Positions 4,337-54,117 of a stretch of 55,164 nt of DNA are shown here, in pieces. The notes beneath the pieces were generated by a model. It saw only the letters and a program-made list of their open reading frames with translations, ran no database searches and was not told where the DNA came from. This DNA comes from a virus (taxonomy: Duplodnaviria; Caudoviricetes), in IMG/VR virus record IMGVR_UViG_3300046816_000301, positions 1 through 55,164 of that record; one strand, 5' to 3'. Both the position numbers and the translations under genes were made by a program. Every line of letters begins with the position of its first letter. Position 1 is the first letter of the stretch.

Positions 4337-4351
4337 TCCCTACCGTAGGGA
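4337..4351. repeat. Palindrome P copy (terS-terL junction)
   Basis: TCCCTACCGTAGGGA. Confidence 0.95.
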
Positions 4352-4354
4352 GAT

Positions 4355-4403
4355 GAGCGAAGTGCGCCGAGCAGTGCGCAGGCGCGCGGGAGCGAGTGGG
4401 AGA
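4355..4403 (+). repeat. Structured repeat S copy A
   Basis: GAGCGAAG-tgcgcc-GAGCAGTGCGCA-ggcgcg-CGGGAGCGAGTGGGAGA. Confidence 0.9.
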
Positions 4404-4406
4404 TAA

Positions 4407-5810
4407 ATGGACTACCACGCCCCGCCCACCGTCGCCGCGTTTATGCTGGATAGCAAGACGCGGATACGTACCCTTGTTGGCCCACTTGGAAGTGGGAAAA
4501 CAATGGGGTGTGTTATGGAGTTGCTAAAGCGCGGCTGCGAGCAGCAGCCCCATAACGGCGTGCGCTACACCAGGTTCGCGCTGATCAGGAATACTTTACA
4601 ACAGCTCCGTCAGACAGTGCTCGCAGATGCACTGCAGTACCTCGGTCCCTGCGCGCATTTCTACACCACGGACTCGACCTTGCAGGTCAGGCTCCGCCTG
4701 CCTGACGGGACGGGGGTGCACTCCGACTGGCCGTTGATCCCGCTGGACTCGAAGGAGGACGTGCGCAGGTTGCTGTCCATGCAGCTCACCGGCGCTTATG
4801 TGAATGAACTACGAGAAGTTCCTTTTGAGATTATCAGGCCGCTGCTGGGAAGATGCGGAAGATATCCAAGCAAAGCTCTTGGGGGAGCTACCTGGAGAGG
4901 AATAATTTGCGACACCAACCCGTGGGATACCGACAGCCCGTATCACGACCGGATGGTGCTCAACCCGAAGCCCACCTGGAAATTATATCACCAACCCTCG
5001 GGCATAAGCTCCGACGGGGAAAACACCGAGAACCTGCCCGACGGCTATTACGCAGACCTGATGGAAGACCACGACGTGGACTGGGCGTCGGTCCATGTCG
5101 AGAGCCAGTGGGGGACTTCCAACGCCGGGCAGGCGGTGTTCAGAAAAACCTTTCACGCACCCACCCACGTCAAGGATATGGGGGTGCTGGTCAACCCCAA
5201 TAAGCCAGTGATGATCGGCCTGGACTTTGGCAGAACCCCCTGTGCCATAATAGGTCAACATGACAACTTCGGCAGAGCAATAATAATGAAAGAAGTTGTT
5301 ACGGAAGGTATGGGTTTAATTCAGATGATCGAGGAGCATCTTAAGCCAGTACTCCTCGCGCCGCCCTTCGCCGGCAAGCGCGTGTTTGTGGTAGCAGACC
5401 CCGCCGGGGCGCAGCGCTCGCAGCTCAGCGAGGAGACGGCGTTTATGGTGCTTAAAGATCAAGGATTTTTAGCTTATCCTGCTTCTACTAATTCTATAGA
5501 TCTAAGGTTACTAGCAGTAGAAAAACTACTCCGCCAGCAAATATTAGGGGAACCTGCTCTACAGATTAGTAGAGCAGGTTGCCCAATACTTATTACGTCC
5601 CTCGGTAATAAGTACCGCTACCGGCGTCGTCGAGATGGCAATCTCGACGATATCCCCGAGAAGCTCCACCCGTGGAGCGATATCTCCGACGCCCTGCAGT
5701 ATTTTTGCCTAGGCACCCAGAGTAATTTAACCGGGCGGGTGCTCAACCGCGACCGCCCGAGGATCATGAACAATAATCAAACACTGGTGTCGGCGGCGGG
5801 GTGGACATGA
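4407..5810 (+). CDS. terL: Terminase large subunit
   Basis: Walker A GPLGSGKT, Walker B-like GAYVNELRE, coupling motif DTNP, nuclease motifs IGLDFG and DISDALQY. Confidence 0.93.
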   Translation: MDYHAPPTVAAFMLDSKTRIRTLVGPLGSGKTMGCVMELLKRGCEQQPHNGVRYTRFALIRNTLQQLRQTVLADALQYLGPCAHFYTTDSTLQVRLRLPDGTGVHSDWPLIPLDSKEDVRRLLSMQLTGAYVNELREVPFEIIRPLLGRCGRYPSKALGGATWRGIICDTNPWDTDSPYHDRMVLNPKPTWKLYHQPSGISSDGENTENLPDGYYADLMEDHDVDWASVHVESQWGTSNAGQAVFRKTFHAPTHVKDMGVLVNPNKPVMIGLDFGRTPCAIIGQHDNFGRAIIMKEVVTEGMGLIQMIEEHLKPVLLAPPFAGKRVFVVADPAGAQRSQLSEETAFMVLKDQGFLAYPASTNSIDLRLLAVEKLLRQQILGEPALQISRAGCPILITSLGNKYRYRRRRDGNLDDIPEKLHPWSDISDALQYFCLGTQSNLTGRVLNRDRPRIMNNNQTLVSAAGWT

Positions 5811-5854
5811 GCGAAGCTCGCGCGGATCAGCGCGCAGCGGGAGCGAATGGGAGA
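5809..5854 (+). repeat. Structured repeat S copy B (different loop)
   Basis: GAGCGAAG-ctcgcgc-GGATCA-gcgcgcag-CGGGAGCGAATGGGAGA. Confidence 0.8.
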
Positions 5855-6035
5855 TAGGAGTGATCTACACGACCACTGGGAGAGAGGCCCAGCCTTGTGG
5901 AGGGGCTGGACCCCGCTACTACCGACGAACTATGATGAGCTTGATCCTGACGGACCAAAGTACCATAATCCACGGCAGGAGCCGGCGATGGGTACGAGCC
6001 ATCGTTTTCTCTCCTGTGGTGCGGCGCCGGGCTAA
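5847..6035 (+). CDS. Hypothetical protein
   Basis: 62 aa ORF filling the gap after terL on the same strand. Confidence 0.4.
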   Translation: MGDRSDLHDHWERGPALWRGWTPLLPTNYDELDPDGPKYHNPRQEPAMGTSHRFLSCGAAPG

Positions 6036-6075
6036 TCCCCGGCGCCGTTTTCATTTATGGCACAGGGGATAAATA

Positions 6076-6306
6076 ATGGAAGTAATTAGAACTCCCAGCG
6101 TCACCGGCATCGTCGAGTATCTTGAGCGCCTGCTGAAGCAAGCCCACGCCGGCGAGCTGTCAACCGTGTTCGTCGTATCGTTCAAGGCCGGAGACAGCAC
6201 CTGGCTGTCGGTCGAGAAGGGCGTGCGCCTGGATCGGCTAAGAGCGATCGGGGTGCTCGAGTGCATGAAGCTCGACCTGATGCGCTCGATGGATACTGAG
6301 GAGTGA
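6076..6306 (+). CDS. Hypothetical protein
   Basis: 76 aa, AGGGGA RBS, coupled to the next gene (GTGA). Confidence 0.7.
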   Translation: MEVIRTPSVTGIVEYLERLLKQAHAGELSTVFVVSFKAGDSTWLSVEKGVRLDRLRAIGVLECMKLDLMRSMDTEE

Positions 6307-6584
6307 GCCACGACCGCCTGATCTGGGCGGCGTTTGCTGCGGTGGCCCTGCTGGTTGTGGTAACCGGCGCCCTGGTCTTTGGCGGCGTTTTCTTCGCCCC
6401 GGGCAGCGACAGCGTTATCAGGCAGATGATCGAGGGGCGGGTGCTCTCGCGCGGGATCGCCCTCTTCCTGATCATCCCGACGATTGCACTGCTATGCCTG
6501 CAAAACAAAATCCACGGCGACGCCGCGCTGGCCGCGCTCTCGGCGATCGCCGGCTACATCCTCGGCAGCACTTCCGGTCAGTGA
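6303..6584 (+). CDS. Small membrane protein (2-3 TM; holin-like possibility)
   Basis: Hydrophobic segments LIWAAFAAVALLVVVTGALVFGG, GIALFLIIPTIALLCL and AALAALSAIAGYILG. Confidence 0.6.
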   Translation: MSHDRLIWAAFAAVALLVVVTGALVFGGVFFAPGSDSVIRQMIEGRVLSRGIALFLIIPTIALLCLQNKIHGDAALAALSAIAGYILGSTSGQ

Positions 6585-6631
6585 CGAGCTGCGCTAGTAT
6601 CTATAGTAGTTATATTAGTAGGGGAGGTAAC

Positions 6632-6859
6632 ATGAGCAACCCACGGGCTTACGTGCGCTGCGACGGGCGGCGGATCGAGCTGAACCTCTACGACAACGCG
6701 ATCGTCAATCAAGTGACGATCGCGGCCGACGACGCGATCCTCCTGGCCAAGGAGCTGCTCACGCAGGCGCTGCGCATGAAAGACGTAGAGGCGAGGGATA
6801 AACGCGCCGACGCTTACGCGGCGGGGAACGCCAGGCACCCCTTACCTTTATCCCGATGA
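6632..6859 (+). CDS. Hypothetical protein
   Basis: Strong GGAGGT RBS before ATG 6632 (internal start of ORF 6494..6859). Confidence 0.65.
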   Translation: MSNPRAYVRCDGRRIELNLYDNAIVNQVTIAADDAILLAKELLTQALRMKDVEARDKRADAYAAGNARHPLPLSR

Positions 6860-7113
6860 AAAAACATCCCCCGCCCGGACCCGACGACCCCTTGGTCAAG
6901 GCCGCGCAGCCGTTCAGGGAGTGGCAGCGCCCCAAGGTGTGCGACTACCGCGAGGGATGCTGGGTCAACGACGGGCCGAGCGCGTGCAGCCACGTATCGG
7001 GCGGCGGGTCTTTTTGTAAAGCGTGCGACGGCGACATCCGTCACCAGAGCATGCGCCACTTCAAATGGAGTGAAGCGCTAAAACAAGCGGAAACATTAGT
7101 CACTGGGGATTAA
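6856..7113 (+). CDS. Hypothetical Cys-rich protein
   Basis: ATGA overlap with the previous gene; several Cys including CKAC. Confidence 0.6.
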   Translation: MKKHPPPGPDDPLVKAAQPFREWQRPKVCDYREGCWVNDGPSACSHVSGGGSFCKACDGDIRHQSMRHFKWSEALKQAETLVTGD

Positions 7114-7174
7114 AGGGAGTGACACTTGGACCAACCAAAGTGTCACTCCCGCTACCGGCTCGAAGCTAGGAGAT

Positions 7175-7200
7175 AACCCCACCGGCTGACGGGGGTTTTT
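7175..7200 (+). terminator. Probable intrinsic terminator of the terminase operon
   Basis: AACCCC-ACCGGCTGACG-GGGGTTTTT hairpin plus T run after the last + strand gene. Confidence 0.55.
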
Positions 7201-7268
7201 CCGGCGCACTCCCCGCCTTACCGCCCCGGAGGTAAATGAGTAAAACCCTCCGGTAGTTTAGTATCTTA

Positions 7269-7313
7269 CCATTCGCTCTCGCACCGCTCCGTACTACTCG
7301 CGGTGCTTCGCTC
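7269..7313 (-). repeat. Structured repeat S copy C
   Basis: GAGCGAAG-caccgc-GAGTAGTACGGA-gcggtg-CGAGAGCGAATGG. Confidence 0.85.
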
Positions 7314-7375
7314 TTCTTTTCGTTTGCCGCAGCCTGCTTCCTTCGGCAGAGGAACGCCGAGCATATAAACCATTT

Positions 7376-7677
7376 TCATCCGTTAAACAACTCGCCAGGG
7401 CGCACCCCTAAAGCTCGAGCGAGCTTTATGAGGTTATCCAAACCGATGTTGCGCTCGCCGCGCTCTACACTCCCGACGTAGGTCGGGTGGAGCTGCGCCG
7501 CCGCGAGAGGGCCGCCGAGGGAGCTTAGAGCTTCGTCGGGTAAAGAGCCGCTGGGGGCGGCTCCCCGACGCGCGACAGGGTTTAATACTTAGGCTCCTCC
7601 TGTGTCCAGCCGCGTGCCATACGCAGCTGGCGCACGCGCTGCCCGAGCCGCTCTCTGTCTGACCGCCCCACCGGCAT
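7376..7677 (-). pseudogene. XRE/Cro-C1 HTH regulator interrupted by an ~83-nt insert
   Basis: 5' half MPVGRSDRERLGQRVRQLRMARGWTQEE(P) stops at 7582. The 3' half, in another frame, reads LAAAQLHPTYVGSVERGERNIGLDNLIKLARALGVRPGELFNG* and ends at 7376. Removing 83 nt gives a 72-aa HTH_3 protein. Confidence 0.85.
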
Positions 7678-8099
7678 AGCGGTATTCCCGACGCCGGTAC
7701 AAAAATAAGTCCACAGACGATGGCGCGCTGGTCTCGACGATCCTCTGCCTCCGCTTGGTGAACCAAGCGGATCAGCTCCTCGCACGGCTCGATCATGCGG
7801 TGGCGCACGGTGGAGACCCGACGCCTGACATTCCCTTGAGTAAACTCAAGGCGAATGGAGATGTGCTTGGTGCCTTGACGCTGCGATAGAGCAGTGTCAA
7901 TGAGCGGTATCGACACGCCGAGATGTTGGGCAACATCCCGGCGCGGCGGGAACGGCTCGCCGGCGTCATGCAGTATAACGCAGAAGACCAGAAACTTCGC
8001 CGTCGCCACGGGCGGCCGCATGATCGGTTCCTCTTCCTGAAGCCAGGTCATGACGGCGCGCACCGCATGTTCCGAAGGGCGCGGCAGATCAACTCCCAA
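7434..8099 (-). CDS. Putative winged-HTH protein; the C-terminal ~90 aa overlap the XRE gene and may be non-functional read-through
   Basis: PFPPRRDVAQHLGVSIPLIDTAL is HTH-like; GAGGA RBS before TTG 8099. Confidence 0.55.
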   Translation of the reverse strand: MGVDLPRPSEHAVRAVMTWLQEEEPIMRPPVATAKFLVFCVILHDAGEPFPPRRDVAQHLGVSIPLIDTALSQRQGTKHISIRLEFTQGNVRRRVSTVRHRMIEPCEELIRLVHQAEAEDRRDQRAIVCGLIFVPASGIPLCRWGGQTESGSGSACASCVWHAAGHRRSLSIKPCRASGSRPQRLFTRRSSKLPRRPSRGGAAPPDLRRECRARRAQHRFG

Positions 8100-8380
8100 G
8101 TTTTCCTCCTCTGGAAATACGCGAGCCTTGTGCTCAGCGCAGAACCTGTGTTGTGCTCCACGTTAGTCCATAAGAGCTATATTTATATGACAGCGAGGGA
8201 CAGCAAGCTACAAAATACGTCGGAGCGTAATATGGGGGTAATTCGCTAATCCCTTACGAGCCAAGGGATTAGCGGTGGATATGCCTGTGGATAACTCTGT
8301 GAGTAACCCGACAAGTACAAACAAATACAGCCGCGTCATGACGCGGCTGTATTGTGTGGTGTTTAGGGTGTAGCGCGGCG

Positions 8381-8686
8381 CTACAAAACTTTGTCGTGTG
8401 CCGGGACGTACATAATGTCGCAGGGTTCGTAGTCGTCGCCGCCGGCGCCGCAGTCGCGGCACCCACCGACCGAGTCGTCGCTGTCGGTGCACCATTTCTG
8501 CTTCCTGATATTCCAGAAAGCGGAGGCGTCAACTATCTTGACGCGAGCGCTGCCACAGGTGCCGCAGACCGCGAGCATTATCTCCCGCTCGCTCCCGTGC
8601 GCCTGCGCACTGCTCAGCGCACTTCGCTCGTCGCCGTCCGGCGATGACGCCGGAGGCGGAAAGATATTGTCCTCCCTGTCGTCCAT
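8381..8686 (-). CDS. Small zinc-ribbon protein (alternative start 8578)
   Basis: CGTCGS...CRDCG. ATG 8578 is preceded by GGGAGA supplied by a repeat copy. Confidence 0.6.
   Translation of the reverse strand: MDDREDNIFPPPASSPDGDERSALSSAQAHGSEREIMLAVCGTCGSARVKIVDASAFWNIRKQKWCTDSDDSVGGCRDCGAGGDDYEPCDIMYVPAHDKVL
8581..8629 (-). repeat. Structured repeat S copy D
   Basis: GAGCGAAG-tgcgct-GAGCAGTGCGCA-ggcgca-CGGGAGCGAGCGGGAGA. Confidence 0.9.
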
Positions 8687-8987
8687 GCGTTTTTTCCTGC
8701 ATATAGGTTTTATAGATAGGTAGCTTAGCTTACGATGTTCCCTGTAGAATGCCAACGCAATAAGGCGTGAATTTAGGTTCGTAATATACATAAAATGCTA
8801 GTTATTACGAAATTTAATAACCTCGAATTTTAACCACGACGAAACGTAGCATTTTAGTGACTTCGGAAATTTATCATTCTCGTGGCGACGCGTTACGTGG
8901 GCGCCCGGCCTGGCCGGCCCCCCTTGGACAGCTACCCCCCGGGGGCCTGGCCGTGCCTTGGCCGGTGACAGAAAGCGGTGACAGAAA

Positions 8988-9002
8988 ACCCTACCGTAGG
9001 GA
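8988..9002. repeat. Palindrome P copy (upstream of gene 9070)
   Basis: ACCCTACCGTAGGGA. Confidence 0.95.
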
Positions 9003-9069
9003 ATTTGGGCAGAAACTATCGGATGACACAGTAGTGAGGGTTCCCCTCGTTTTCATAGGAGATACTAAA

Positions 9070-9867
9070 GTGAGTGAGAAGAAATTGACTGGAAAGCTGT
9101 TGGTCGCCGATATTGTCGGGAAGCAAATCGCAACTCTTGAAGACGTTTACGCTGACGTGAACGTTGCGACCGATGGTCTTAGTGTCGCCAACAAGGCAGC
9201 ATCCGCCGAGCGCCGCACCATAATGGATAACTGCGCTGCACTCGCACTTACGCACAACTTCACGGCTGAGGAAATAAAGCTTGGCGTAGAGGCAGCAATC
9301 ACCAGCTACAAGGGCAATGCGCTGGCACAAAAGACGCTCGACAACATCAAGAGCGAACTTAAGTCCGTAATGCATCCAAACGTTCGAGCCAAGCTGCCAG
9401 AACTACGCAAACTTGCGAAGAGCGTCATCGCCGATAAGACGCGGTATGCCGATCTTGCTGACGCATTTAGCGGCAGGGAAGATTTCATCGTGGCACGCGT
9501 TGCGGCTGACGCTGCCAAAGCGCGCCACGATTTGAAGGAACCGCCAGTCACAGTTGAGGGTCTACGGTCGCTTGTGACCAAACGTGACACGGCACGTTCG
9601 CAAAGCATCCCGCGCGTAAAGGGTAAGCTGAAGACGATGATAACCATCTGCAACGAGGCGGAAGCTATCCTTAAGCTGCCGCAGTTCGCCAAGATCCGAG
9701 TACTATGCGAAGCGTTGAACGATGACGCTACCCTAAAGGCGGCGCTCGCCAAATACATAACGGAAACGAAAAACGCCAGCAACCTGCGCGGCGCGAACGG
9801 CAAGGAAAAGGCCGCACCTGCGGAAGGCGCGAGTGATATGGATGACGTGCTAAACGACGCGGCCTAG
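9070..9867 (+). CDS. Hypothetical helical protein, monocistronic (likely GTG start 9070)
   Basis: AGGAGA RBS before GTG at 9070 within ORF 8857..9867; followed by two terminators. Confidence 0.75.
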   Translation: MSEKKLTGKLLVADIVGKQIATLEDVYADVNVATDGLSVANKAASAERRTIMDNCAALALTHNFTAEEIKLGVEAAITSYKGNALAQKTLDNIKSELKSVMHPNVRAKLPELRKLAKSVIADKTRYADLADAFSGREDFIVARVAADAAKARHDLKEPPVTVEGLRSLVTKRDTARSQSIPRVKGKLKTMITICNEAEAILKLPQFAKIRVLCEALNDDATLKAALAKYITETKNASNLRGANGKEKAAPAEGASDMDDVLNDAA

Positions 9868-9892
9868 CAAACCGCACTACCTACACCTACCC

Positions 9893-9921
9893 TGCCCCCA
9901 GTGAAAACTGGGGGCATTTTT
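9893..9921 (+). terminator. Intrinsic terminator
   Basis: TGCCCCCAGT-GAAA-ACTGGGGGCA-TTTTT. Confidence 0.9.
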
Positions 9922-9966
9922 GCGTTTAAAACGCAACGGTATCGTGGCGTTGATAAACCATCTAGG

Positions 9967-9995
9967 AAGGCCGCCAGTGCGGCCTTTTGTGTTTT
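9967..9995 (+). terminator. Second intrinsic terminator
   Basis: AAGGCCGC-CAGT-GCGGCCTT-TTGTGTTTT. Confidence 0.7.
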
Positions 9996-10095
9996 GGCTA
10001 GGGAGGTACCTGCGACACGCTAGACCCTACTCACGCGCCACGAGGCGCCGGCGCTGGCCTATTCTACGCGTGACCCATGCCCTACAAGTCCTATA

Positions 10096-10135
10096 GACGC
10101 CCTGCCGACGCCGTGCCGACGCCGTGCCGACACGG
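10096..10135. repeat. Short tandem repeat, 11-bp unit TGCCGACGCCG x3
   Basis: gacgccc-tgccgacgccg-tgccgacgccg-tgccgacacgg. Confidence 0.75.
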
Positions 10136-10635
10136 TGTAAGTAACACAGCGCAAGTGTCACTCCAAAAACCTACACTGTCACGTCGCAGTAGTTGGGAAA
10201 CTAGATAGTAATTCGCCACTACGAGGGTATAACATACTGATAACGCGTAATCTTACGCGTTCCGCCGAAACGCGAGCGATGGAAGAGAGCTGAATTAGTC
10301 CGCACGTTTTACGATAGGACGCGGCGCCGTACCCGACAATTTTATCCGTAAGACGCGAACTAGGGGCAAACACGGGGTATAAACCGCTGATATTTATATA
10401 TATTATTTTAAGACTATTATTATTATTATACTAACTCGGTTTGACGATACGTGGATTTAGTCGATTTCCTAATTGCTATGGTCGCCGTCGATGTCTCTTT
10501 ATGTACCCCTATCTTTCCGGTTTAGATTAATAGAGTAGGTACTAATAGAAAAACATTGTTTGTTATGAATGGTTTAAACCCCCGGCATTATTCTAGGATG
10601 CTGACATTGCGACGCTGAATTTGCTACCCACAAAA

Positions 10636-10650
10636 TCCCTACGGTAGGGA
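10636..10650. repeat. Palindrome P copy (abuts first iteron)
   Basis: TCCCTACGGTAGGGA. Confidence 0.95.
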
Positions 10651-10651
10651 A

Positions 10652-10899
10652 TGACCCCTATTTGGCGCTTAGCCGCTACCATAAAAATATTATTTCTATA
10701 AAGTGACCCCTATTTGGCGGATGCTATCGTCGAAAGTGACCCCTATTTGGCGGATGCGAGTGTGAAAGTGACCCCTATTTGGAGCGTGCGATGTCGAGTG
10801 TGACCCCTCAATCGTCGCGTATCAAGATCACTTTGACCCCTATTTTGGAGCGTAGGGTCCGCGACACGCAGATTGCAGCCGGAAATGTGACCCCTTTTT
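10652..10899 (+). repeat. Seven iteron-like direct repeats TGACCCCT(ATTTGG) beside an AT-rich tract; candidate origin or packaging site
   Basis: Cores start at 10652, 10704, 10737, 10769, 10801, 10834 and 10888; AT-rich DNA at ~10380-10620. Confidence 0.85.
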
Positions 10900-10974
10900 C
10901 GCGCTTCATCGTGCATCTGATCGAGCGCGGACTGGATCAGCTCGACGCGGAATTGATAGGAGAGGAGCAAACGG

Positions 10975-11169
10975 ATGAGCAAGAGGAAGCGTAAACGCAC
11001 CGTAAAAACATCCACCGTAGAAATAGGTATGTGGTCGAGACCGGGGTTCCGTCGAGTGGAACCCCTGTCTTCACCGCTCGCAGGTACCTTAGACTACGAT
11101 CAGCTCGGCCGTCACCGTCATACACTAAACGAACTACGTGACCGGAGGAAAGGTTATGTCACTTACTAA
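10975..11169 (+). CDS. Hypothetical basic protein
   Basis: GAGGAG RBS; 64 aa. Confidence 0.5.
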   Translation: MSKRKRKRTVKTSTVEIGMWSRPGFRRVEPLSSPLAGTLDYDQLGRHRHTLNELRDRRKGYVTY

Positions 11170-11413
11170 GCTGACCGTAATGCAAGAGGTCGTGTTACAC
11201 CGCGACGTGAGCCTAGCGCTGCGCTCGACGCTGCGCGACTGCGAGAACGGTATGCCGGAAGAGTTGGTAGTAAACTCGCTCGCGCTTAATAATGTCCCGG
11301 TCGAGATCACGCGCGGCGTGATCGCGTTGCTTCTTAATGCTGAGTGGATCGCCCGTCGAGATGGGCGCTTGTACTATGTGAGTTACGACGAAACAAAGGA
11401 TCAAAAACTATGA
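11156..11413 (+). CDS. Hypothetical small protein (wHTH-like pattern)
   Basis: GGAGGA RBS upstream of ATG 11156; ends in L...EWI.RRDGRLYY. Confidence 0.55.
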   Translation: MSLTKLTVMQEVVLHRDVSLALRSTLRDCENGMPEELVVNSLALNNVPVEITRGVIALLLNAEWIARRDGRLYYVSYDETKDQKL

Positions 11414-11449
11414 CCGATCAGAGGTATACTTGGTAAAACAAAGTAATAC

Positions 11450-11478
11450 TTGACATTTACAATAACGTGTGGTATAAT
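11450..11478 (+). promoter_or_regulatory. Consensus sigma70 early promoter
   Basis: TTGACA (11450-55), 17 bp, TATAAT (11473-78), with extended -10 TG and an AT-rich upstream element. Confidence 0.92.
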
Positions 11479-11505
11479 CAAAATAAAACCCAAGTAACCG
11501 CAAAT

Positions 11506-11520
11506 TCCCTACTGTAGGGA
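11506..11520. repeat. Palindrome P copy (downstream of sigma70 promoter)
   Basis: TCCCTACTGTAGGGA. Confidence 0.95.
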
Positions 11521-11776
11521 AAATCTTTAGGAGAGTAGAAATGGACGAGTTGAACATGACAGACTGTCGAGTTTGAGATGACCGACACAATGGAAAACTT
11601 CCTTGCCGATCTTCGTTTCATTCTGTCAACGCGCGGTGCTTTGCGGCATCAGCCGCTTGTGCGCAGCCATTTCTGGCGTCGGCTCGAAGAATTGCGCGGG
11701 CGAGCGGCTTTTCGATAAAACCGCAGTCGCGGCCAAGGTGGGCGCGCGCTGTAACCCTTAACCAAGGAGAGACTAA

Positions 11777-12073
11777 ATGACTGAGTATGTTTCCGAGTTC
11801 GGCAAACGGTGGGACGCTCGTGTCCCGCGAGGTGATATTCACTGGTACATGGGTCGCGTCCACGTCGCCACGTCCGACGAAGACGTCGCGGCCGATATCC
11901 GCAAGCGCTGTACCGCGCCGGGTTTCACCGAGACGCTTATCAAGGCGTCGATCAGGTATGCGCTCGTGTGTCACAAGCGCAATCGTCAGCTATACCACTA
12001 CGTCGCCCATCCGCGTGGCGACGCAGAGCTGCGCCACAACATGGACCGTTGGCAGAGGGAGCTAAAGCGGTGA
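11777..12073 (+). CDS. Hypothetical early protein
   Basis: AAGGAG RBS; 98 aa. Confidence 0.7.
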   Translation: MTEYVSEFGKRWDARVPRGDIHWYMGRVHVATSDEDVAADIRKRCTAPGFTETLIKASIRYALVCHKRNRQLYHYVAHPRGDAELRHNMDRWQRELKR

Positions 12074-12264
12074 AGAAACTGCACTGTGAAGCTCGCTCGG
12101 CTCCACTGGCTGAGCCTGTCGGGTTGTGTAAGCGCGGCAGCGTGTTTACGACGATCACCCGTCGCGCGTTCGACCGTGTCGTGCCGGCGCGAGCGTGCGC
12201 GAAGTGCAGCTACCAGCTGCGCAAGCTCAAGCGCGGTGCTACCGCGCCCACTTGGTACAGATAA
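12070..12264 (+). CDS. Hypothetical Cys-containing protein
   Basis: GTGA overlap with the previous gene; CAKC motif. Confidence 0.5.
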   Translation: MKKLHCEARSAPLAEPVGLCKRGSVFTTITRRAFDRVVPARACAKCSYQLRKLKRGATAPTWYR

Positions 12265-12278
12265 TATAGGAGTGATAG

Positions 12279-12500
12279 ATGTCTGAATTGTTCGTAGGTA
12301 TCATGTTCGTCGGGTCGTGGGTGTTCTTCGCGGCGATAACAGAACCGCCGTGGGTAGGCGTGTTCCTCATCGGGTTGGCATCGTGCGGCGGGCTGTACGG
12401 TCTCGCCAACCACGTCGACGCATCTGCTTGGCAAGCGTGGGGCGGCATCATGCTGCTCGGCGTCGTCATCCTGATCGGCCAATACAAATACGGCCGTTAA
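12279..12500 (+). CDS. Small membrane protein
   Basis: AGGAG RBS; three hydrophobic stretches. Confidence 0.65.
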   Translation: MSELFVGIMFVGSWVFFAAITEPPWVGVFLIGLASCGGLYGLANHVDASAWQAWGGIMLLGVVILIGQYKYGR

Positions 12501-12504
12501 ACCC

Positions 12505-12521
12505 GTCCCTACCGTAGGGAC
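12505..12521. repeat. Palindrome P copy (intergenic)
   Basis: GTCCCTACCGTAGGGAC followed by TTTTT. Confidence 0.95.
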
Positions 12522-12539
12522 TTTTTAGGAGCATGAAAA

Positions 12540-12719
12540 ATGGCACGTTATGAGGTTCGGGTTGTCTATCGCGGTCTGTCTAACTTCATCGTCGAGGCCG
12601 CGACGCCGGAAGAGGCCAAGGAGAAGGCACGGGAGATGTTCAACAACGGCGAGGAGGCGCCGGTGCTCGGCAACGAGTGGGAAGAGATCGACACCGTTCA
12701 CATGCCTATCCAGATCTAA
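12540..12719 (+). CDS. Hypothetical 59-aa protein (below ORF-track cutoff)
   Basis: Hand translation MARYEVRVVYRGLSNFIVEAATPEEAKEKAREMF...; AGGAG RBS; VEA..PEEA..KA pattern common in small phage proteins. Confidence 0.65.
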   Translation: MARYEVRVVYRGLSNFIVEAATPEEAKEKAREMFNNGEEAPVLGNEWEEIDTVHMPIQI

Positions 12720-12736
12720 ACTCAGGAGAACTTCAA

Positions 12737-13993
12737 ATGAACTTATCAGAAGCAAAACAGGTGATGCTGCGCACCCACATCGGCGCGATCGAGCATGAGC
12801 TGCGAGCGGTCTCCATCACGATGGAGAGCATGCCTGGCGTGGGTAAGAGCGAGGCGCTCTTCCAGTACGCGCAGATGCTCGCGCACCGCCTCAACGAACC
12901 CGTCGGGGTCGTTGTCTGCATGCTCGCGTCCATCAGCTCGGCCGATGTTCGCGGGTTCATGATCCCCATGCGTGGATCTCCACCCAAGAGCGTGTTCTCG
13001 CTCCCGCCGTGGTACCCCACCAACGACGAAGAGGAGGTGGACGGGGAGGTCACAACCAAATCGGTGAACTACTGGGTGATTGACCCGTCGGGTCAGTGGT
13101 ACCGCGAAAGCGGTTGGCACGACGCGATGCCCGAGACGGGGATCGTGTTCCTCGACGAGTGGGGCCAGGCCGAGGAGGACGTCAAGAAGCCCGCAGCTGA
13201 ACTCCAGCTTAATGGGAACGTCGGGACCCACCGGCTCCCCATCAAGTGGCGCGTCGTCGCCGCGCAGAACCGCACGAGCGACCGCTCGGGTGTCATGCGT
13301 GAGATGATGCACATTATTAATAGGAGGATGTTGTTAAAAATAGATAGCTCCGTCCCGACGTGGCTGCAGTGGACCGACGAGCAGGTGGGCTTTATGCGGC
13401 CACACTTTATGACCGTCGCGTTCGCGAGACAAAATCCCGATATTGTCTTCAGGGACTCAGTTCCTGATGGCACCGATCCCTACTGCACACCTAGAACACT
13501 GTGCATGATGGATCGCACGTTGAGGATGTTGGTGGAGTACGAGCCTCGCAGGCTCGATCCTTCGGGAAGCTCGGCGAGCAGTGCGCAGCCGAGCGGGAGC
13601 GAGTGGGAAAAAGAACTCCCCACTGATGATATAGCGAGGGAGTGCGCAGCGGGATTGATCGGCGGCGCGGCCGCCGGTCAGTTCATGACCTTCCTCAAGT
13701 ACTTCGACCTCCTGCCCACGATCGAGGAGATCATAGATGATCCGAGTGAGGCAAAACTCCCGTCGGGTCACGACGCCCAGATGGTCGCGGCGTTTATGCT
13801 AGCTCATCATATTGATGAGCAGAACGCCGATCCGTTCCTGAAGTACATTTTCAGGATGGTCCCCGAGATGCAGATACTCAGCGTGCAGATCGTCAACGCC
13901 GATCCCAAGCGGGCGCAGTTTTTGTATCCGCTGCCGGGGTTCCAGCGCTTCCTCACCCAGCACAAAGATCTGCTGGTCGGGAGTTACATGTGA
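12737..13993 (+). CDS. MoxR-like AAA+ ATPase
   Basis: Walker A SMPGVGKS, Walker B IVFLDEW, sensor VVAAQNR, TPRT; AGGAG RBS before ATG 12737. Confidence 0.88.
   Translation: MNLSEAKQVMLRTHIGAIEHELRAVSITMESMPGVGKSEALFQYAQMLAHRLNEPVGVVVCMLASISSADVRGFMIPMRGSPPKSVFSLPPWYPTNDEEEVDGEVTTKSVNYWVIDPSGQWYRESGWHDAMPETGIVFLDEWGQAEEDVKKPAAELQLNGNVGTHRLPIKWRVVAAQNRTSDRSGVMREMMHIINRRMLLKIDSSVPTWLQWTDEQVGFMRPHFMTVAFARQNPDIVFRDSVPDGTDPYCTPRTLCMMDRTLRMLVEYEPRRLDPSGSSASSAQPSGSEWEKELPTDDIARECAAGLIGGAAAGQFMTFLKYFDLLPTIEEIIDDPSEAKLPSGHDAQMVAAFMLAHHIDEQNADPFLKYIFRMVPEMQILSVQIVNADPKRAQFLYPLPGFQRFLTQHKDLLVGSYM
13563..13608 (+). repeat. Structured repeat S copy E (inside AAA+ gene)
   Basis: CGGGAAG-ctcggc-GAGCAGTGCGCA-gccgag-CGGGAGCGAGTGGGA. 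Confidence 0.9.
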
Positions 13994-14097
13994 TCGAGCA
14001 TCGATCGCATGTCCCGCCATGCGTTTCCCCGATCAGGGGATACGTTGATCGGAAGCTACATGTAGCTTAACGTGTATCAAATATAGGAGCTGTAGAA

Positions 14098-15012
14098 ATG
14101 AACGATTTAGATGTGACGACGGCCCTGCGTCAGGCAGGCATGCTCGCGGATGTGAGCATCAGTACGTGGGGAGGTACACGTACTGATAATGGGTTACTCA
14201 ACGAGGTCAAGCGCCAGCACAACGCCCACGGCGACGTGGGGCGCATGATGAAGAACCTACTGGCCGGGCACGATGCTAGATTAAAAGCCGCCAGGGGCGC
14301 CTACAACGCGGTCAGGCAGCGCTATTACGAGCTGACCCTGCCGTGGACCTCGGACCCTCATGCCTTGCGGCAAACAGGCCCGCGCCTGTTGACGTTCCCG
14401 CTCTTCGACAACTTCATGAAGGAGATGGCGGCAGCCAAGCGCGTCGCGTTCGACGCTAGAGATACGTTTGTCGAGCACTACGACGAGGACGCCGAGGCGG
14501 CGAGGGGTAATTTGGGTGGGTTGGTTCTCGAGACGGAATATCCGTCTCGAGACGAAGTCAGTGCTGCGTTCCGCATCCACTTCGACATTGAGCCTATCCC
14601 CGAAAGCTCTACCTTTCGGGGGCTTCCGGACCTCGCGCTGAACTCCCTTAAGAAAAACCTCGACAAGAAGCGCGAGGCACAGGTGAAGGCAGCCCAAAGC
14701 GCAGCTTGGGCTGAGTCACGGGAGCGCGTCGAGCATCTTATTAAGCGCCTCACCGAAGCGCCGGTGCCTACTGCACCGGACAAATCCCCGCGCTTTAAAA
14801 ACTCCACGGTCGAGAACGTGCGCGAGTTACTTGAACTTCTCCCTGGCTGGAACATTACCGACAATCCGCTGGTTGCGGATATCGTCGGCGATCTGAAGCA
14901 AATGCTTCAGAACGTGACGGCCGAGTCCCTACGTAGGGACGACGCGCTGCGCGCTGCTACTGCGCAGAATGCGCAGAGCGTGATTGATAAGATGAAGGGA
15001 TGGGGTATGTGA
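14098..15012 (+). CDS. Conserved helical phage protein (DUF3150-like) of the AAA/vWA cassette
   Basis: YELTLPW...GPRLL and YPSRDEVSAAF motifs; lies between the AAA+ and vWA genes. Confidence 0.6.
   Translation: MNDLDVTTALRQAGMLADVSISTWGGTRTDNGLLNEVKRQHNAHGDVGRMMKNLLAGHDARLKAARGAYNAVRQRYYELTLPWTSDPHALRQTGPRLLTFPLFDNFMKEMAAAKRVAFDARDTFVEHYDEDAEAARGNLGGLVLETEYPSRDEVSAAFRIHFDIEPIPESSTFRGLPDLALNSLKKNLDKKREAQVKAAQSAAWAESRERVEHLIKRLTEAPVPTAPDKSPRFKNSTVENVRELLELLPGWNITDNPLVADIVGDLKQMLQNVTAESLRRDDALRAATAQNAQSVIDKMKGWGM
14925..14940. repeat. Palindrome P copy, no spacer (in CDS)
   Basis: GTCCCTACGTAGGGAC, encodes SLRRD. Confidence 0.95.
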
Positions 15013-15401
15013 GAATAACATCGTCGAGTTACGCGATGCAGTGGTGGGAAACCTTAACCGAAGGAGGTTTACCAAGGTTCTACATCTTCTGCTCGAACCC
15101 TTCGACAATGTCGAAGGGTTACCGCGCCACGTACCAGCACATCAACGTGGTCGAGCTTAAACCTACCACCAAAGACCTCCCGCGCTCCGTCAGGAGCGCG
15201 GGGGTGAAGCAAGTACTATTACACACCGTGCCCCTGCATCTCGACACGCAGGGGCGGCGGGTGTGGGAGAGAGCTGAACGTGTCGTGAGTAAGCTAAACT
15301 CGATGACGCTCTCGGTGCTTGCACACGAGAACGAGCGCAAGGGTATAAGTGAGCTGTTCGCTCACTTATGGTCCGAGGATGTTGAGAACAACTCTTGTTA
15401 G
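15009..15401 (+). CDS. Hypothetical protein
   Basis: ORF filling the operon gap; GTGA overlap at 15009. Confidence 0.55.
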   Translation: MRITSSSYAMQWWETLTEGGLPRFYIFCSNPSTMSKGYRATYQHINVVELKPTTKDLPRSVRSAGVKQVLLHTVPLHLDTQGRRVWERAERVVSKLNSMTLSVLAHENERKGISELFAHLWSEDVENNSC

Positions 15402-15412
15402 GAGATAAATAA

Positions 15413-16693: not shown

Positions 16694-16741
16694 GGAGTTT
16701 GCGTCACGGCGGGCTTGACCTTGCCTATCGCGCAAATGCCA

Positions 16742-16771
16742 GCCGGGACGGTGGTGCACCACCGTCCCGGC
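16742..16771. repeat. Perfect 30-bp palindrome
   Basis: GCCGGGACGGTGGTG|CACCACCGTCCCGGC. Confidence 0.9.
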
Positions 16772-16815
16772 CCAAGCGCTTTAAGGTTCCCTCTACCCCC
16801 AGCAGGGAGAACCAC

Positions 16816-17109: not shown

Positions 17110-17222
17110 GGGAGAACTGCATGGTGTTGTTCTGGCAGGTGCTTAAATACACAGCGGTCAGCCTGTTCATCATCTTCATGTTGATGATGATCTACCATGC
17201 GCGGTTAGTTTGTTCGTAACCC

Positions 17223-49655: not shown

Positions 49656-49661
49656 GAGAAA

Positions 49662-50329: not shown

Positions 50330-50343
50330 TCCCTACGTAGGGA
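50330..50343. repeat. Palindrome P copy, no spacer (intergenic, between stop and RBS)
   Basis: TCCCTACGTAGGGA. Confidence 0.95.
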
Positions 50344-50592
50344 CTAAACGCTCCCCGCGCCGGTGGTGTTGCGGTTGGGCAAAGCCGGCCCGCCAAGGGA
50401 GCCGCTCTTCTTCGCCAGCGCCCGCTTCAGCGAGACCGGGCCGCCAGTCGATGCCGGCCCCGGGATCGGCCGCTGCGGCACGGAGTGCCCCCAAGTACCG
50501 CCCGAATTATTAACGTTGTTGTCGTCGCCGGTGTCGTTAGTGCCGCCGCCCTTGCCTTTGTAATAAGGCCCACCAATTTGCCCGTGCATCAT
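50344..50592 (-). CDS. Small Gly-rich protein
   Basis: AGGAGG RBS before ATG 50592/50589 (internal start of ORF 50344..50811). Confidence 0.5.
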   Translation of the reverse strand: MMHGQIGGPYYKGKGGGTNDTGDDNNVNNSGGTWGHSVPQRPIPGPASTGGPVSLKRALAKKSGSLGGPALPNRNTTGAGSV

Positions 50593-52244: not shown

Positions 52245-52252
52245 TGCTCACC

Positions 52253-53038
52253 TCACCCGAGGAATGCGTATCGCGACGCCAGCACGATCCAGTGTGCGCC
52301 GGTCCACTCGAAAATCAAATCGTCATAGTTGATATCGCTGACAAAACTAGAGGCGGCGTAAATCGTATTACCGGGCGCGCCCTGGTAAGTAATCGGAAAA
52401 GCCCCGGCGTTGCCGGTAATATCCACCGGCGCGACCCGCTGTAGCTGGGTCGGGGTTATCGGCAAGGTGACGATGATCGGCGCACCGCTGGTGTTCTGTA
52501 CGTAAACCCGGCCGTTGTAACCCATCGGGATTGTCGTAGAGCCGTTGACGATGATCGGCTGGCCCCCGGCGGACGGGTCAGGCGTTGCCGCCGCGACCAT
52601 GTTCAGGTTGAGTGGCTTTTCAATCGTCACAAGACAGTCGACCTGCTTGCGCCGAGGCTGCGCCTCCGACGAGGTGGCAATTACGCTAACCACGTAATTC
52701 AAGCCTGGCGTCCCAGCCGAGACGCGAACCTGGACCTGAGATGCCGACAAGGTAATCGCCGCCGACTGGATCATCAGTGGGTAGGTATCCGCAGGGGGTT
52801 GAGTGACGGACGTATTATCCAGCGGATAGTCGTTCTGCCAAGGCGGAACCGGCACCGCGCCCTCAAGCTGCACCGCCGGCTGCGCAATCGCGCCGATCGT
52901 CTCGCCTGCATTGAGCCAACAGGTAAAGTCGAATACCAACAAGGTAACGTCGAGGTTTTCCTTGGTCACCGGCCCAAACGGCTGAACCGTGTAAGGCATC
53001 ACACTAAAAAAATAATCGCCGCCGCTGCCACCGTCCAT
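52253..53038 (-). CDS. Structural protein (fibre adaptor-like)
   Basis: FDFTCWL..GETI...VSAGT.G..Y.V N-domain and a short beta-rich C-domain. Confidence 0.6.
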   Translation of the reverse strand: MDGGSGGDYFFSVMPYTVQPFGPVTKENLDVTLLVFDFTCWLNAGETIGAIAQPAVQLEGAVPVPPWQNDYPLDNTSVTQPPADTYPLMIQSAAITLSASQVQVRVSAGTPGLNYVVSVIATSSEAQPRRKQVDCLVTIEKPLNLNMVAAATPDPSAGGQPIIVNGSTTIPMGYNGRVYVQNTSGAPIIVTLPITPTQLQRVAPVDITGNAGAFPITYQGAPGNTIYAASSFVSDINYDDLIFEWTGAHWIVLASRYAFLG

Positions 53039-53049
53039 CGGCGTTCTCC

Positions 53050-53712
53050 TTACCAGCGACCGGGAAAGTGGCCGCCGCCACGCCCGCTCGGATACCCACC
53101 CGCCGCAAAGTACGGGAAGCTCCAGCTCGACCCCTCACGGACGTGCGCCGCTTGCGCCTCGGCGCGGGCGCCTGCGACGCCCTTGCGGTACATAGAGGTG
53201 CAAAGCTGCGCTGCTTTCATATCGCCGTAAGGCTTCGCCGGCTGCATGTAGAGCCGTGCCAACGCACCGTTGTAGAGCGCATCGAAGTAAGTCGTCCACA
53301 CATCGTATGGCAGGCAGGTATTGATGCTCCTAGGCTTGAGCGACAGCAGGACCTCGCCGTTGCGCGTCGTGGTAGGCGGTGGCGAGGTCAGATCACGGAT
53401 GCGCCCCGGCGGCTCGAACTTAACCCGATCGAGACCACTAAACCCAAGAAAGCGTGACACGCGCCAGTCCTGATCGTAGGGGTCAAAACTTATGGTCAAA
53501 ACACCGGGGTCCAGACGCCAGTAGACATGTTCCCGACGATAGGTGCTCGTCATGTAAAAATCCTCGATGGTGTTCCAGATCACCATCGACAGGACTTCGG
53601 TCGTCAGCCCGGGAATGATCGCCCCGATATTGTCAAACAACCGGTCAACGTTCGGCTCCGGCGACAGGTAGCCAGGCAGCTCGCAGATCGGGGTCGAGGA
53701 GGGACCGCTCAT
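53050..53712 (-). CDS. Putative head-tail adaptor
   Basis: IPG....L...I.DF, L..GALARLYMQPAKPY; downstream of the capsid gene. Confidence 0.65.
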   Translation of the reverse strand: MSGPSSTPICELPGYLSPEPNVDRLFDNIGAIIPGLTTEVLSMVIWNTIEDFYMTSTYRREHVYWRLDPGVLTISFDPYDQDWRVSRFLGFSGLDRVKFEPPGRIRDLTSPPPTTTRNGEVLLSLKPRSINTCLPYDVWTTYFDALYNGALARLYMQPAKPYGDMKAAQLCTSMYRKGVAGARAEAQAAHVREGSSWSFPYFAAGGYPSGRGGGHFPGRW

Positions 53713-54074
53713 GATTGCACCGAGAGAATTTGTGCGACGAACTTATTCATCAACGACACCGCGCGGCCGTCGGTGCTAAAAGTGTCCTCGGTCAACTCCG
53801 AGCGCCCGACGACATAAAACAGGCACGGCGCATAAAACAAAATGTCACTTACCGGAAACGGCGTATCGGCGTCGGTCGGCATCACGTATTGCGGCACTGA
53901 CAGGCGCAGCCCAAAGCCGAGCCACGCATCCGGGCGCTTGTTGCGAAGCTGGTACAACGCGTCGTTGAGCGCGTGTACCAGATCGCTGTCCTCAAAGCGC
54001 GGGGCGCCCGAGATCGGAACGGTGTCGTTCAATATCTCGCGCGCCTCGCCAAGCAAGTCACCAACGGTCTTCAT
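53709..54074 (-). CDS. Putative head-closure/adaptor protein
   Basis: AREILND...R...DL...LNDAL......RPD motif. Confidence 0.65.
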   Translation of the reverse strand: MKTVGDLLGEAREILNDTVPISGAPRFEDSDLVHALNDALYQLRNKRPDAWLGFGLRLSVPQYVMPTDADTPFPVSDILFYAPCLFYVVGRSELTEDTFSTDGRAVSLMNKFVAQILSVQS

Positions 54075-54102
54075 CTGCGCCTCCGTAGGGAGGGTTATAC
54101 TC

Positions 54103-54117
54103 TCCCTACCGTAGGGA
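54103..54117. repeat. Palindrome P copy (after capsid gene)
   Basis: TCCCTACCGTAGGGA, with an extra half-site CCGTAGGGA at 54083-54091. Confidence 0.95.

Follow-up and report, generated by a model that had tools for sequence, protein, structure and literature searches.

What could hold some twenty near-identical short palindromes at set places along a phage genome while their sequence differs from one related phage to the next? The question is raised by IMG/VR virus record IMGVR_UViG_3300046816_000301 (Duplodnaviria; Caudoviricetes), whose entire 55,164 bp, an estimated ~90% of a complete genome, form the window analysed here, and by the palindrome TCCCTAC-N-GTAGGGA that recurs along it. Judged by comparison with related genomes, the sites are old, have been held in place, and have changed in sequence jointly within each genome. 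The reading that we favour, tentatively and with not quite half of our confidence, is that the palindromes are duplex-DNA sites of a phage-encoded dimeric regulator, acting in the manner of operators or stoperators, with a winged-helix protein (ORF 7434-8099, minus strand) as the best candidate for the binder. Within that reading we infer three things: that a protein binds the sites, that the binder is this winged-helix protein, and that binding affects transcription.

Copies of the palindrome in the window

The core CCCTAC-N0/1-GTAGGG occurs 17 times exactly in the window and not once in 100 dinucleotide-preserving shuffles. Three further copies with one mismatch (ACCTACGTAGGG at 18281, CCCTACCGTTGGG at 20491 and CCCAACCGTAGGG at 33644) bring the family to 20, where the shuffles average 0.11 matches to the 13-mer and 0.06 to the 12-mer when up to one mismatch is allowed. 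A sequence-only reading of the same DNA had counted 17 exact and three near copies by eye and had proposed a scan against a background model; both counts hold, its positions for the exact copies lying one base lower since they included the flanking T, and its near copies at 18280, 20490 and 33643 being those now placed at 18281, 20491 and 33644. As that reading had also described, the centre is a single nucleotide or absent: 13 exact cores have a 1-nt centre (on the plus strand C in 10, G in 2, T in 1) and four have none. The majority of copies are flanked by T and A, which gives the 15-nt form TCCCTAC-N-GTAGGGA. Lone half-sites occur at about chance frequency, GTAGGG being found 32 times in total and CCCTAC 27 times, with 17 of each lying within palindromes.

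As the sequence-only reading stated, the copies lie in all modules and on both arms of the genome, with 11 in the 17.6 kb of the early/replication arm, a higher density than in the structural arm. Thirteen of the 20 lie between genes or no more than 30 nt from the end of one, where 3.0 would be expected (p = 5e-7 with a crude gene model); the other seven lie deep within coding sequence. The gene model came from a crude codon-usage caller and was edited by hand before counting: five calls were removed (starts 7758, 7923, 17063, 23588 and 23841) and four open reading frames (ORFs) were added (7434-8099, 16699-17109, 23598-24056 and 24062-24367). The copies at 4338, 12507, 17225, 21994, 24047 and 50331 start 1-6 nt past a stop codon or include the stop, and their ends precede the following start by 3-56 nt; overall the gap from a site to the following start codon varies from 3 to about 60 nt.

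A separate observation concerns the centre base, which is C on the plus strand regardless of gene direction in 10 of the 13 exact 13-mers and in both near 13-mers, 12 C against 2 G in all. We estimate a two-sided binomial p of ~0.013 for this bias, which is absent from the other genomes.

Lineage-specific palindromes at orthologous positions

Scanning viral contigs with the 15-mer gave 31 stretches, among which the contigs with multiple copies were relatives of the window; further relatives were found through the large terminase subunit TerL (19 loci) and through the winged-helix protein. Locus searches with the single proteins P0010, P0013 and P0011 gave no relative, and one with P0007 led to L183/G006. 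The scan of related phages, which the sequence-only reading had suggested, shows that relatives carry other palindromes, in the four near-complete ones in 20-34 copies, many of them at orthologous places. The palindromes by genome or locus are:

G007, G009, L169-171 and L173: CCACTAC-N1-3-GTAGTGG; in G007 (99% complete genome) CACTAC-N1/2-GTAGTG, 20 copies
L172, L174 and L182: CACTAC-NN-GTAGTG
L176 and L177: TTACTCC-N1/2-GGAGTAA
L179: GCCCAAC-N-GTTGGGC
G005: TCCCGAC-N-GTCGGGA, together with two TCCCTAC copies
G006 (100% complete genome): TTAGTAC-NN-GTACTAA, 20 copies
G414 (99% complete genome): ACTAC-N1/2-GTAGT, 21 copies, counted with 5-nt arms
Rhizobium phage RHph_TM3_14A (complete isolate genome): TTACC-N5/6-GGTAA, 34 copies by this definition (looser ones give more), mostly GTTACC-N6-GGTAAC

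The variants with TCCCGAC, GCCCAAC and TTACTCC arms come from partial contigs, whereas the near-complete genomes of the window, G006, G007 and G414 are strikingly alike in copy number (20, 20, 20 and 21). Soil samples of one kind can yield close relatives (TerL 74-79% identical) whose palindromes differ. In the near-identical relative G003, on the other hand, all 5 sites of the shared stretch are kept, with no difference in presence or absence. The preference for gene boundaries recurs, with 14 of 20 sites in G006, 10 of 20 in G007, 18 of 34 in RHph_TM3_14A and 6 of 7 in the distant contig G001 (all p <= 2e-4).

To establish orthology each site was mapped onto the homologues of the window genes. 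A palindrome of the genome's own lineage lies at the junction p121-MCP, after the gene for the major capsid protein (MCP), in five of five genomes; at the end of the gene for the putative small terminase subunit TerS in four of four; at the end of the VRR-NUC gene and start of the SNF2 helicase gene in four of four; and at primase residue 230-239 in four of five, with residue 197 being the place in RHph_TM3_14A. Three of four genomes have one at residue 184-198 of the vWA gene, three of four between the ATPase gene and the next gene, and three of four just upstream of the ATPase gene. In the primase alignment the site falls in the same poorly conserved linker and in the same frame, and encodes IPTVG, VSTGT or TTTRS according to lineage. 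Such own-lineage palindromes at orthologous positions require a sequence-specific, trans-acting reader whose specificity changes, and positions that persist while their sequence changes argue against repeated insertion of a mobile unit.

The copies in the window, with what is kept at each position in relatives, are as follows (the core begins at the first coordinate unless another start is given):

4337-4351 (core from 4338): TCCCTAC-C-GTAGGGA, 2 nt past the putative TerS stop and 56 nt ahead of the TerL start; at the TerS end in G006, G007 and G414 stands a palindrome of the respective lineage
8989-9001: intergenic, where the Cys-rich and winged-helix genes, running leftward, diverge from the first of the rightward early genes (GTG at 9070)
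10637-10649: centre G, adjoining an iteron array
11506-11520 (core from 11507): centre T; a perfect TTGACA-N17-TATAAT lies 27 nt upstream, and a ribosome-binding site and ATG follow
11450-11478, plus strand: that promoter, TTGACA-N17-TATAAT of sigma-70 type (12 of 12 positions matched), which closely precedes the copy at 11507
12506-12520 (core from 12507): between co-directional genes, 6 nt past a stop and 20 nt ahead of the next ATG
14927-14938: no centre, within the 3' part of gene 14098-15012
17224-17238 (core from 17225): in the spacer that precedes gene 17282-18103; the homologue in G007 is preceded, at 17 nt, by the palindrome of that lineage
18281-18292: one-mismatch copy within the DNA polymerase gene
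20491-20503: one-mismatch copy within the exonuclease gene
21994-22006: overlapping the VRR-NUC stop (TAG inside the motif), 15 nt ahead of the SNF2 helicase ATG; position kept in G006, G007 and G414
24047-24058: no centre, overlapping the stop of gene 23598-24056
26580-26592: in the primase linker, at about residue 230 of 979; G006, G007 and G414 keep the position with a differing sequence, and RHph_TM3_14A has a site close by
31076-31088: first of a pair 54 bp apart, intergenic between the late-operon terminator and the integrase gene
31130-31142: second of the pair, its flank GGGAAAA(A)CTT shared with two G004 copies that precede TTGACA-like hexamers
33644-33656: one-mismatch copy within the gene for the 2349-aa virion protein
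35055-35066: no centre, within the 2349-aa gene
36928-36940: within the 2349-aa gene
41987-41999: in the last codons of gene 41978-42649 (minus strand), 10 nt ahead of the ATG of gene 39301-41976 (minus strand)
50331-50342: 1 nt past the stop of gene 50344-50592 (minus strand), 15 nt ahead of the ATG at 50315 (minus strand)
54103-54117 (core from 54104): at the junction of the major capsid gene with the gene that follows, which holds an own-lineage palindrome in five of five genomes

Some of the copies have other repeats beside them. Immediately upstream of the palindrome at 8989 a direct repeat, GGTGACAGAAA, stands twice at 8963-8988. Directly after the palindrome at 10637 begin at least five direct repeats of GTGACCCCT(ATTTGG), spaced ~32 bp apart over 10650-10900, which extend into a small ORF at 10779-10994 whose product looks ribbon-helix-helix-like by eye; G003 carries the same iteron-like repeats, and the array is possibly an origin or a set of sites for a second regulator. 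Between the capsid stop and the copy at 54104 lies a second, distinct palindrome, TCTACAG-AAC-CTGTAGA at 54122-54138, in whose place G006 and G007 have analogous small palindromes and RHph_TM3_14A has a classic terminator after the site instead.

The identical TCCCTAC 15-mer is found in three very distant phages, namely the window (GC 60%), G001 (66%) and G004 (37%), the proteins that G001 and G004 share with the window being just 22-38% identical. The 7 copies of G001 are confined to its early region, the opening 8 kb of a 43.7-kb contig; a search for its relatives returned the G001 contig alone, and scanning metagenomes with the extended 19-mer yielded 12 stretches, G001 itself and 11 single-copy stretches without a winged-helix gene. 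In the marine relative CRP-1 the palindrome is GTCCAA-NN-TTGGAC, with four copies, of which three fall in the early region. The CRP-1 copies suggest that a small early-region set of operators may be the older state, which the soil clade would have expanded genome-wide. The early-region ORFs of L174 have nothing in common with RHph_TM3_14A, and our literature search found no paper naming the latter.

Candidate reader and rival explanations

How could such a set of sites work? In the reading that we favour, a two-fold symmetric regulator encoded by the phage would bind the palindromes in duplex DNA, and in the window phage this would most likely be the MarR-like winged-helix protein. Sites near promoters would then be ordinary operators: the copy at 11507, the pair 31076/31130 ahead of the integrase gene, and the copy at 8989 in the divergent early control region. 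At the remaining majority, in short gene spacers or in tolerant linkers of long genes, the bound protein would block or modulate the elongating RNA polymerase in a stoperator-like way. Site sequence and protein specificity would drift jointly, leaving each lineage with its own palindrome at the same places, and that palindrome would set immunity or regulatory specificity.

Within 3500-23000 there is a strong sigma-70-type promoter at the copy at 11507 only. The pair 31076/31130 lies between a terminator-like hairpin that closes the late operon and the integrase start, and one of the two copies adjoins a possible -35 hexamer (by eye; a weak match). In G001 two of the seven copies follow TTGACA-N17 promoters by 32-33 nt and four others follow stop codons, while both G004 copies lie upstream of TTGACA-like hexamers. 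For the majority of sites, which lie away from any promoter, the target would have to be the elongating polymerase or something else. Other roles for the sites were tried and rejected. As promoter elements they would be expected to have a -10-like element at a fixed distance past them, and none is seen by eye; as translational operators they would not fit the varying gap to the next start. Overlap with a Shine-Dalgarno sequence (GTAGTGGAG) is frequent in the CACTAC clade and not general. As for intrinsic terminators, just three copies in 3500-23000 fit a simple rule (12507 on the plus strand; 10637 and 8989 on the minus strand), the remaining copies being followed by A or by purine-rich sequence (3500-23000 scanned, the other arm viewed by eye).

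The foremost candidate for the reader, though a disputed one, is the winged-helix protein, going by its sequence, its predicted fold and its distribution. Its feature is:

7434-8099, minus strand: candidate binding protein with a MarR-like winged helix, conserved over residues 1-129 (7713-8099)

The ORF has a TTG start behind GAGGAGG. Its gene is syntenic downstream of TerL in 12 loci and is found in each near-complete genome of the closer clade (four of four: window, G006, G007 and G414), and between lineages the protein is 27-57% identical as against 61-87% for TerL. Its relatives number 145 among 1.8 billion cluster representatives and form a small phage-only family. An AlphaFold2 model based on 66 sequences (mean pLDDT 96.3) has helices and wing in the order found in MarR proteins, which are dimers that bind palindromic DNA, and the best matches of the model in the PDB by Foldseek are MepR, MexR, ZitR and other MarR proteins. 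The recognition helix goes with the class of palindrome, reading (P/A)LID(T/M)ALSQR with TCCCTAC, PM(L/H)DV(V/I)MSQR with CCACTAC and PTVD.VL with arms that start in TTA; over seven lineages the changes in recognition helix and arm sequence match.

The sequence-only reading had named three possible binders, of which this is the one that we retain, on the strength of its synteny, fast evolution, predicted fold and presence throughout the closer clade. The other two have dropped out: the helix-turn-helix (HTH) ORF at 20059-20331 has no Pfam match and no homologue in relatives, and in place of the proposed split XRE gene no XRE gene is found by PHROGs or Pfam among 70 window proteins and ORFs. 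Pfam searches with 30 candidate proteins and ORFs gave no DNA-binding family, just weak sub-threshold or unrelated matches to XhlA, Rv2175c_wHTH (E = 0.039), DUF6378 and BNR_4. A PDB sequence search with three conserved proteins without assigned function gave nothing useful, and in the ESM Atlas the products of 24760-25812 and 24315-24695 match viral hypothetical clusters only, with DUF7307 and Pam3_Gp34 on a minority of their members.

A good deal weighs against this protein, and with it against the regulator that we favour. The chief point is that RHph_TM3_14A, with 34 sites of which several are orthologous, has no homologue of the winged-helix protein at hmmsearch E < 0.1, nor any integrase match, so that a pure lysogeny-repressor reading is not secure; its sites are read either by another protein or by a shared protein outside the candidates. 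No homologue is found at the same threshold in G001 and G004, which carry the window's own palindrome, and no winged-helix gene stands at the syntenic place in L172, L174 and L182, which have CACTAC-NN-GTAGTG sites (all of these being incomplete contigs). With hhalign the best probability for the protein is 3.8% over 599 ORFs of 90-260 aa from RHph_TM3_14A, L172/L174/L182, G001 and G004. Among ten further CCACTACCGGTAGTGG contigs the gene is present in G414 only, the other nine being 9-54% complete. The protein matches no Pfam family, MarR included, and no PHROG family; its fold match to MarR proteins is weak (E = 3e-3, TM ~0.5); and tblastn (E <= 1) against phage records gave no match. The classes of palindrome are also clades, so that the co-variation of helix and motif is not independent evidence: of the earlier suggestion that the motif co-varies with a DNA-binding gene, it stands that both change between related phages, and against it that the pattern follows phylogeny and that RHph_TM3_14A and the L174 type lack the homologue. 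Moreover, the arm spacing varies within a genome (0/1 in the window, 1/2 in G007, 5/6 in RHph_TM3_14A), which is unusual for a rigid dimer, and the region upstream of the winged-helix gene, 8100-8380, has no copy of the palindrome.

Two features of this locus may be recorded beside it. At 8245-8273, upstream of the gene, there is an inverted repeat GCTAATCCCTT-N7-AAGGGATTAGC, whose arms resemble the half-site (ATCCCT) and are separated by a 7-nt gap. The protein has 221 aa in the window and 137-140 aa in close relatives, and a ~230-bp rearrangement (window 7492-7721 against L166 3847-4073), in which a 100-bp piece is inverted and the order swapped, alters the 3' end of the ORF; it could be real or an assembly artefact.

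If not by a dimer on duplex DNA, how else might the sites be read? They could be stem-loops in polycistronic mRNA, or in single-stranded DNA, that a phage protein binds or cuts so as to control processing, stability or translation, a kind of RNA punctuation that we regard as rather unlikely. It would suit the many sites in transcribed spacers right past stops and 3-60 nt before the next start, the loop-like variation of the centre in sequence and in length (0-3 nt, and 5-6 in RHph_TM3_14A), the presence of sites in RHph_TM3_14A, which lacks a detected integrase and winged-helix homologue, and the stems themselves: for window copies, taken on either strand, folding gives -5 to -12 kcal/mol, and in G001 the arms extend to 9-12 bp, the extended form reaching -18.7 kcal/mol. 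Against it, complementarity is kept where the loop would be, the 0-2 nt centres being mostly self-complementary CG (16 of 19 two-nt centres in G006 are self-complementary, 15 CG and one GC, and 10 of 12 in G007 are CG), and the G006 core folds as RNA at just -1.9 kcal/mol; symmetry that runs through the centre and so weak a fold fit a dimer on duplex DNA better than a hairpin, and they weaken the hairpin or cruciform recognition proposed in the sequence-only reading. In the near copies at 20491 and 33644 the mismatch is T-T or A-A in mid-stem and not G-U, and at the seventh arm position of RHph_TM3_14A, sense strand, T-G is about as frequent as C-A, so that there is no wobble bias (listing read by eye). 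The gap to the next start is not fixed, the G004 copies lie upstream of promoter-like hexamers, terminator-like copies are few, Rfam 15 at its gathering score gives no match across the whole window, and no candidate RNA-binding protein was found. The total site length of 14-18 bp with A/T-rich flanks is typical of sites for dimeric HTH proteins. On these sequence features duplex recognition is judged about twice as likely as recognition of RNA or single-stranded DNA. A broader proposal, which we would hold with similarly low confidence, takes the sites as an 'address code': a shared factor would read ~20-35 fixed positions in soil podophages, whether or not an integrase is detected in them, its specificity having been reset repeatedly, all sites of a genome following; the winged-helix protein would be a lineage-specific add-on, and the whole would serve a lytic-cycle process new for phages, for example sequence-specific RNA punctuation or programmed multi-site DNA priming. 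Self-marking and staged ejection or packaging, which the sequence-only reading had also offered, found no support. Less probable again, and in our view doubtful, is a replication or packaging signal, in which a conserved protein would use the sites on both strands (for instance in priming by the 979-aa primase-helicase) or the sites would serve genome organisation or condensation, their boundary placement coming from coding intolerance. Sequence-specific initiation is known for plasmid and phage primases, the palindrome reads identically on both strands, ~20 copies are spread over whole genomes of 55-63 kb, relatives with and without a detected integrase all share the replication and structural core, and boundary enrichment alone cannot separate a role at the DNA level from a transcriptional one. 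However, number and spread alone would not predict that exact positions, intragenic ones included, are kept across lineages, and the early-region bias seen in the confinement of the seven G001 copies to 8 kb, in CRP-1 with just four copies of a related palindrome, and in the denser early/replication arm of the window runs counter to it.

The sites might also belong to the host, as targets of a host protein or as a borrowed repeat of REP/BIME type, the differences between lineages then being differences between hosts. We consider this improbable, although the identical 15-mer in phages as distant as the window, G001 and G004 would be in its favour, as would the finding of the core at the centre of a longer REP-like element in one metagenome-assembled genome (MAG) of an uncultured bacterium and in Haemophilus paracuniculus. 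In that MAG (CAVWAL01..., L052-L122) and in H. paracuniculus (L056, L100 and L101) two hairpin units meet head to head at the core CCCTAC-N-GTAGGG, within a repeat of ~70 nt scattered over many contigs; a scan with one genome per species gave at least 120 loci, mostly single matches, 18 of which were inspected. The likeness to RAYT-associated REP/BIME elements with GTAG feet is limited to this CTAC-N-GTAG junction: phage copies lack the flanking hairpins, their flanks being neither conserved nor self-complementary. The core is present in 9 of 401 genomes sampled from a single bacterial class, once in each, and is rarer than a reversed-pattern control; the class is that of one genome holding the REP-like core, the window phage's own host not being identified. 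Within that sample, then, the expectation of a phage-specific, genome-wide motif that is no host REP is borne out, and the different palindromes of close relatives from the same kind of soil samples also run against a host origin. Least likely of all, and to our minds hardly credible, is a selfish or self-homogenising mini-palindrome that spreads by transposition or gene conversion and has no trans-acting reader. Near-identity of the copies within a genome and their presence in coding linkers could be so explained; but 14-15 bp is very short for either process, no transposase-like gene turned up by PHROGs among 40 window proteins, the sites shared with G003 show no gain or loss, and the occupation of the same positions by different palindromes in different lineages means change in place and not re-insertion. 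Apart from these elements, a bacterial MAG contig (L055, DAIDIT010000110.1, GC 71%) has at 3164-3328 an intergenic array of 7.9 tandem 21-bp units with a TCCCTACCGTAGGGA-like palindrome, which looks like protein-binding sites along one helix face.

Known systems and the phage itself

The passages of PMC4351075 that treat the repeat of Cluster O mycobacteriophages (Corndog and its relatives) describe a 17-bp dyad, TGTTCGG-N3-CCGAACA, with 34 copies in Corndog, whose 7-base inverted arms are invariant within a genome; about one third lie in coding regions, many are intergenic and most are not at promoters, and the central bases have no meaningful orientation to transcription. By the same account the function is unexplained, a dimeric DNA-binding protein is predicted, and the phages are not obviously temperate. 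Set beside that description, the arms here are likewise 7 bp (including the T/A flank), seven of 20 copies are deep in coding sequence, the number is 20 in the window and 34 in RHph_TM3_14A, and the latter offers a parallel to phages that are not obviously temperate. The differences are that those phages are siphoviruses of Mycobacterium and these are podophages of soil bacteria; that the spacer there is fixed at 3 bp and here is 0-3 (or 5-6), the sequences being unrelated; and that the five genomes described there have diverged too little for lineage-specific variants at orthologous positions to be seen. Going by this likeness, the Cluster O repeat has its nearest analogue, though no homologue, in the present palindrome family.

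For the Cluster A mycobacteriophages, which are temperate, the corresponding parts of PMC6550527 report 20-30 dispersed repressor sites per ~50-kb genome, most of them away from promoters, with a lineage-specific consensus that co-varies with a fast-evolving repressor; these stoperators (of L5 gp71) are asymmetric 13-bp sites oriented with transcription, and both binding and function were shown experimentally. The comparison with stoperators in the sequence-only reading holds in part: the window too has 20 near-identical sites dispersed over 55 kb and mostly off promoters, so that copy number and dispersal agree, and the consensus likewise differs between lineages, in a co-variation with the candidate protein that follows phylogeny, whereas the defining asymmetry and orientation do not, the sites here being palindromic and unoriented, with C at the centre on the plus strand in both arms irrespective of gene direction. 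The candidate here is moreover MarR-like and no relative of L5 gp71, the system here is described from sequence, and in RHph_TM3_14A the sites occur without a detected integrase or candidate homologue. The temperate Streptomyces phage phiC31 has conserved inverted repeats (CIRs), palindromic repressor operators in many intergenic regions, which resemble the present sites as palindromic operator copies and differ in phage, host and repressor family. With the MarR family the candidate shares the predicted topology of helix-helix-HTH-beta wing-helix; it lacks a Pfam MarR match.

Dispersed dyad repeats have so far been a matter of a few actinobacteriophage groups, and that of Cluster O has lacked an explanation since 2015; a feature of this kind now appears in podophages that infect Gram-negative soil bacteria and are unrelated to those groups. 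What the diverged relatives add is that the sites are orthologous, that all sites of a genome switch sequence jointly and that the spacer is flexible. With ~20 sites and one candidate protein of 130 aa per genome, and at least seven natural variants of specificity, this is a testable system of co-evolution, to which RHph_TM3_14A, as a cultivable relative on Rhizobium etli, gives experimental access. If the regulator reading is true, this would be, to our knowledge, the first stoperator-like global control system to be reported outside actinobacteriophages, and its pairs of protein and operator would form a natural orthogonal set; should it prove wrong, as RHph_TM3_14A without the protein may indicate, the sites point to a different, shared reader.

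The gene content of the window, from PHROG scans of 40 proteins, gives a podophage layout:

1398-3677, minus arm: portal
3732-4334, plus strand: putative TerS
4407-5810, plus strand: TerL
plus arm, further: small early genes, ATPase, vWA/peptidase-like protein, DNA polymerase A, exonuclease, VRR-NUC, SNF2 helicase and 979-aa primase-helicase
29626-30855, minus arm: tyrosine integrase (PHROG match, E = 1.6e-39)
32239-39288, minus arm: 2349-aa virion protein, with three palindrome copies inside
minus arm, further: internal virion proteins and tail proteins
54145-55098, minus arm: MCP

By its gene content (the integrase) the window phage is judged to be temperate. The closest isolated phages are the Rhizobium phages RHph_TM3_14A, TM27A, TM27B and TM29, with a portal 52.7% identical, the marine HMO-2011-type phages being far more remote; no isolated phage with close similarity at the DNA level was found. 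DNA of the window phage is present in soil and rhizosphere metagenomes, and the hosts of these podophages are Gram-negative soil bacteria, probably Alphaproteobacteria.

Some smaller observations concern individual genes. The 2349-aa virion-module protein has a weak DarB-like match (PHROG 10089, E = 1.2e-17), and the giant gene is kept in all relatives. Between the portal and capsid modules an HNH endonuclease gene (892-1401), probably a mobile gene of homing type, is without homologue in G006, G007 and RHph_TM3_14A; L174 has one adjoining TerL. The 'putative integrase protein' in the record of RHph_TM3_14A (MN988472.1, 42239-45322) aligns over 980 residues to the primase-helicase of the window and not to an integrase, and the attL/attR features annotated in the same record fall inside genes.

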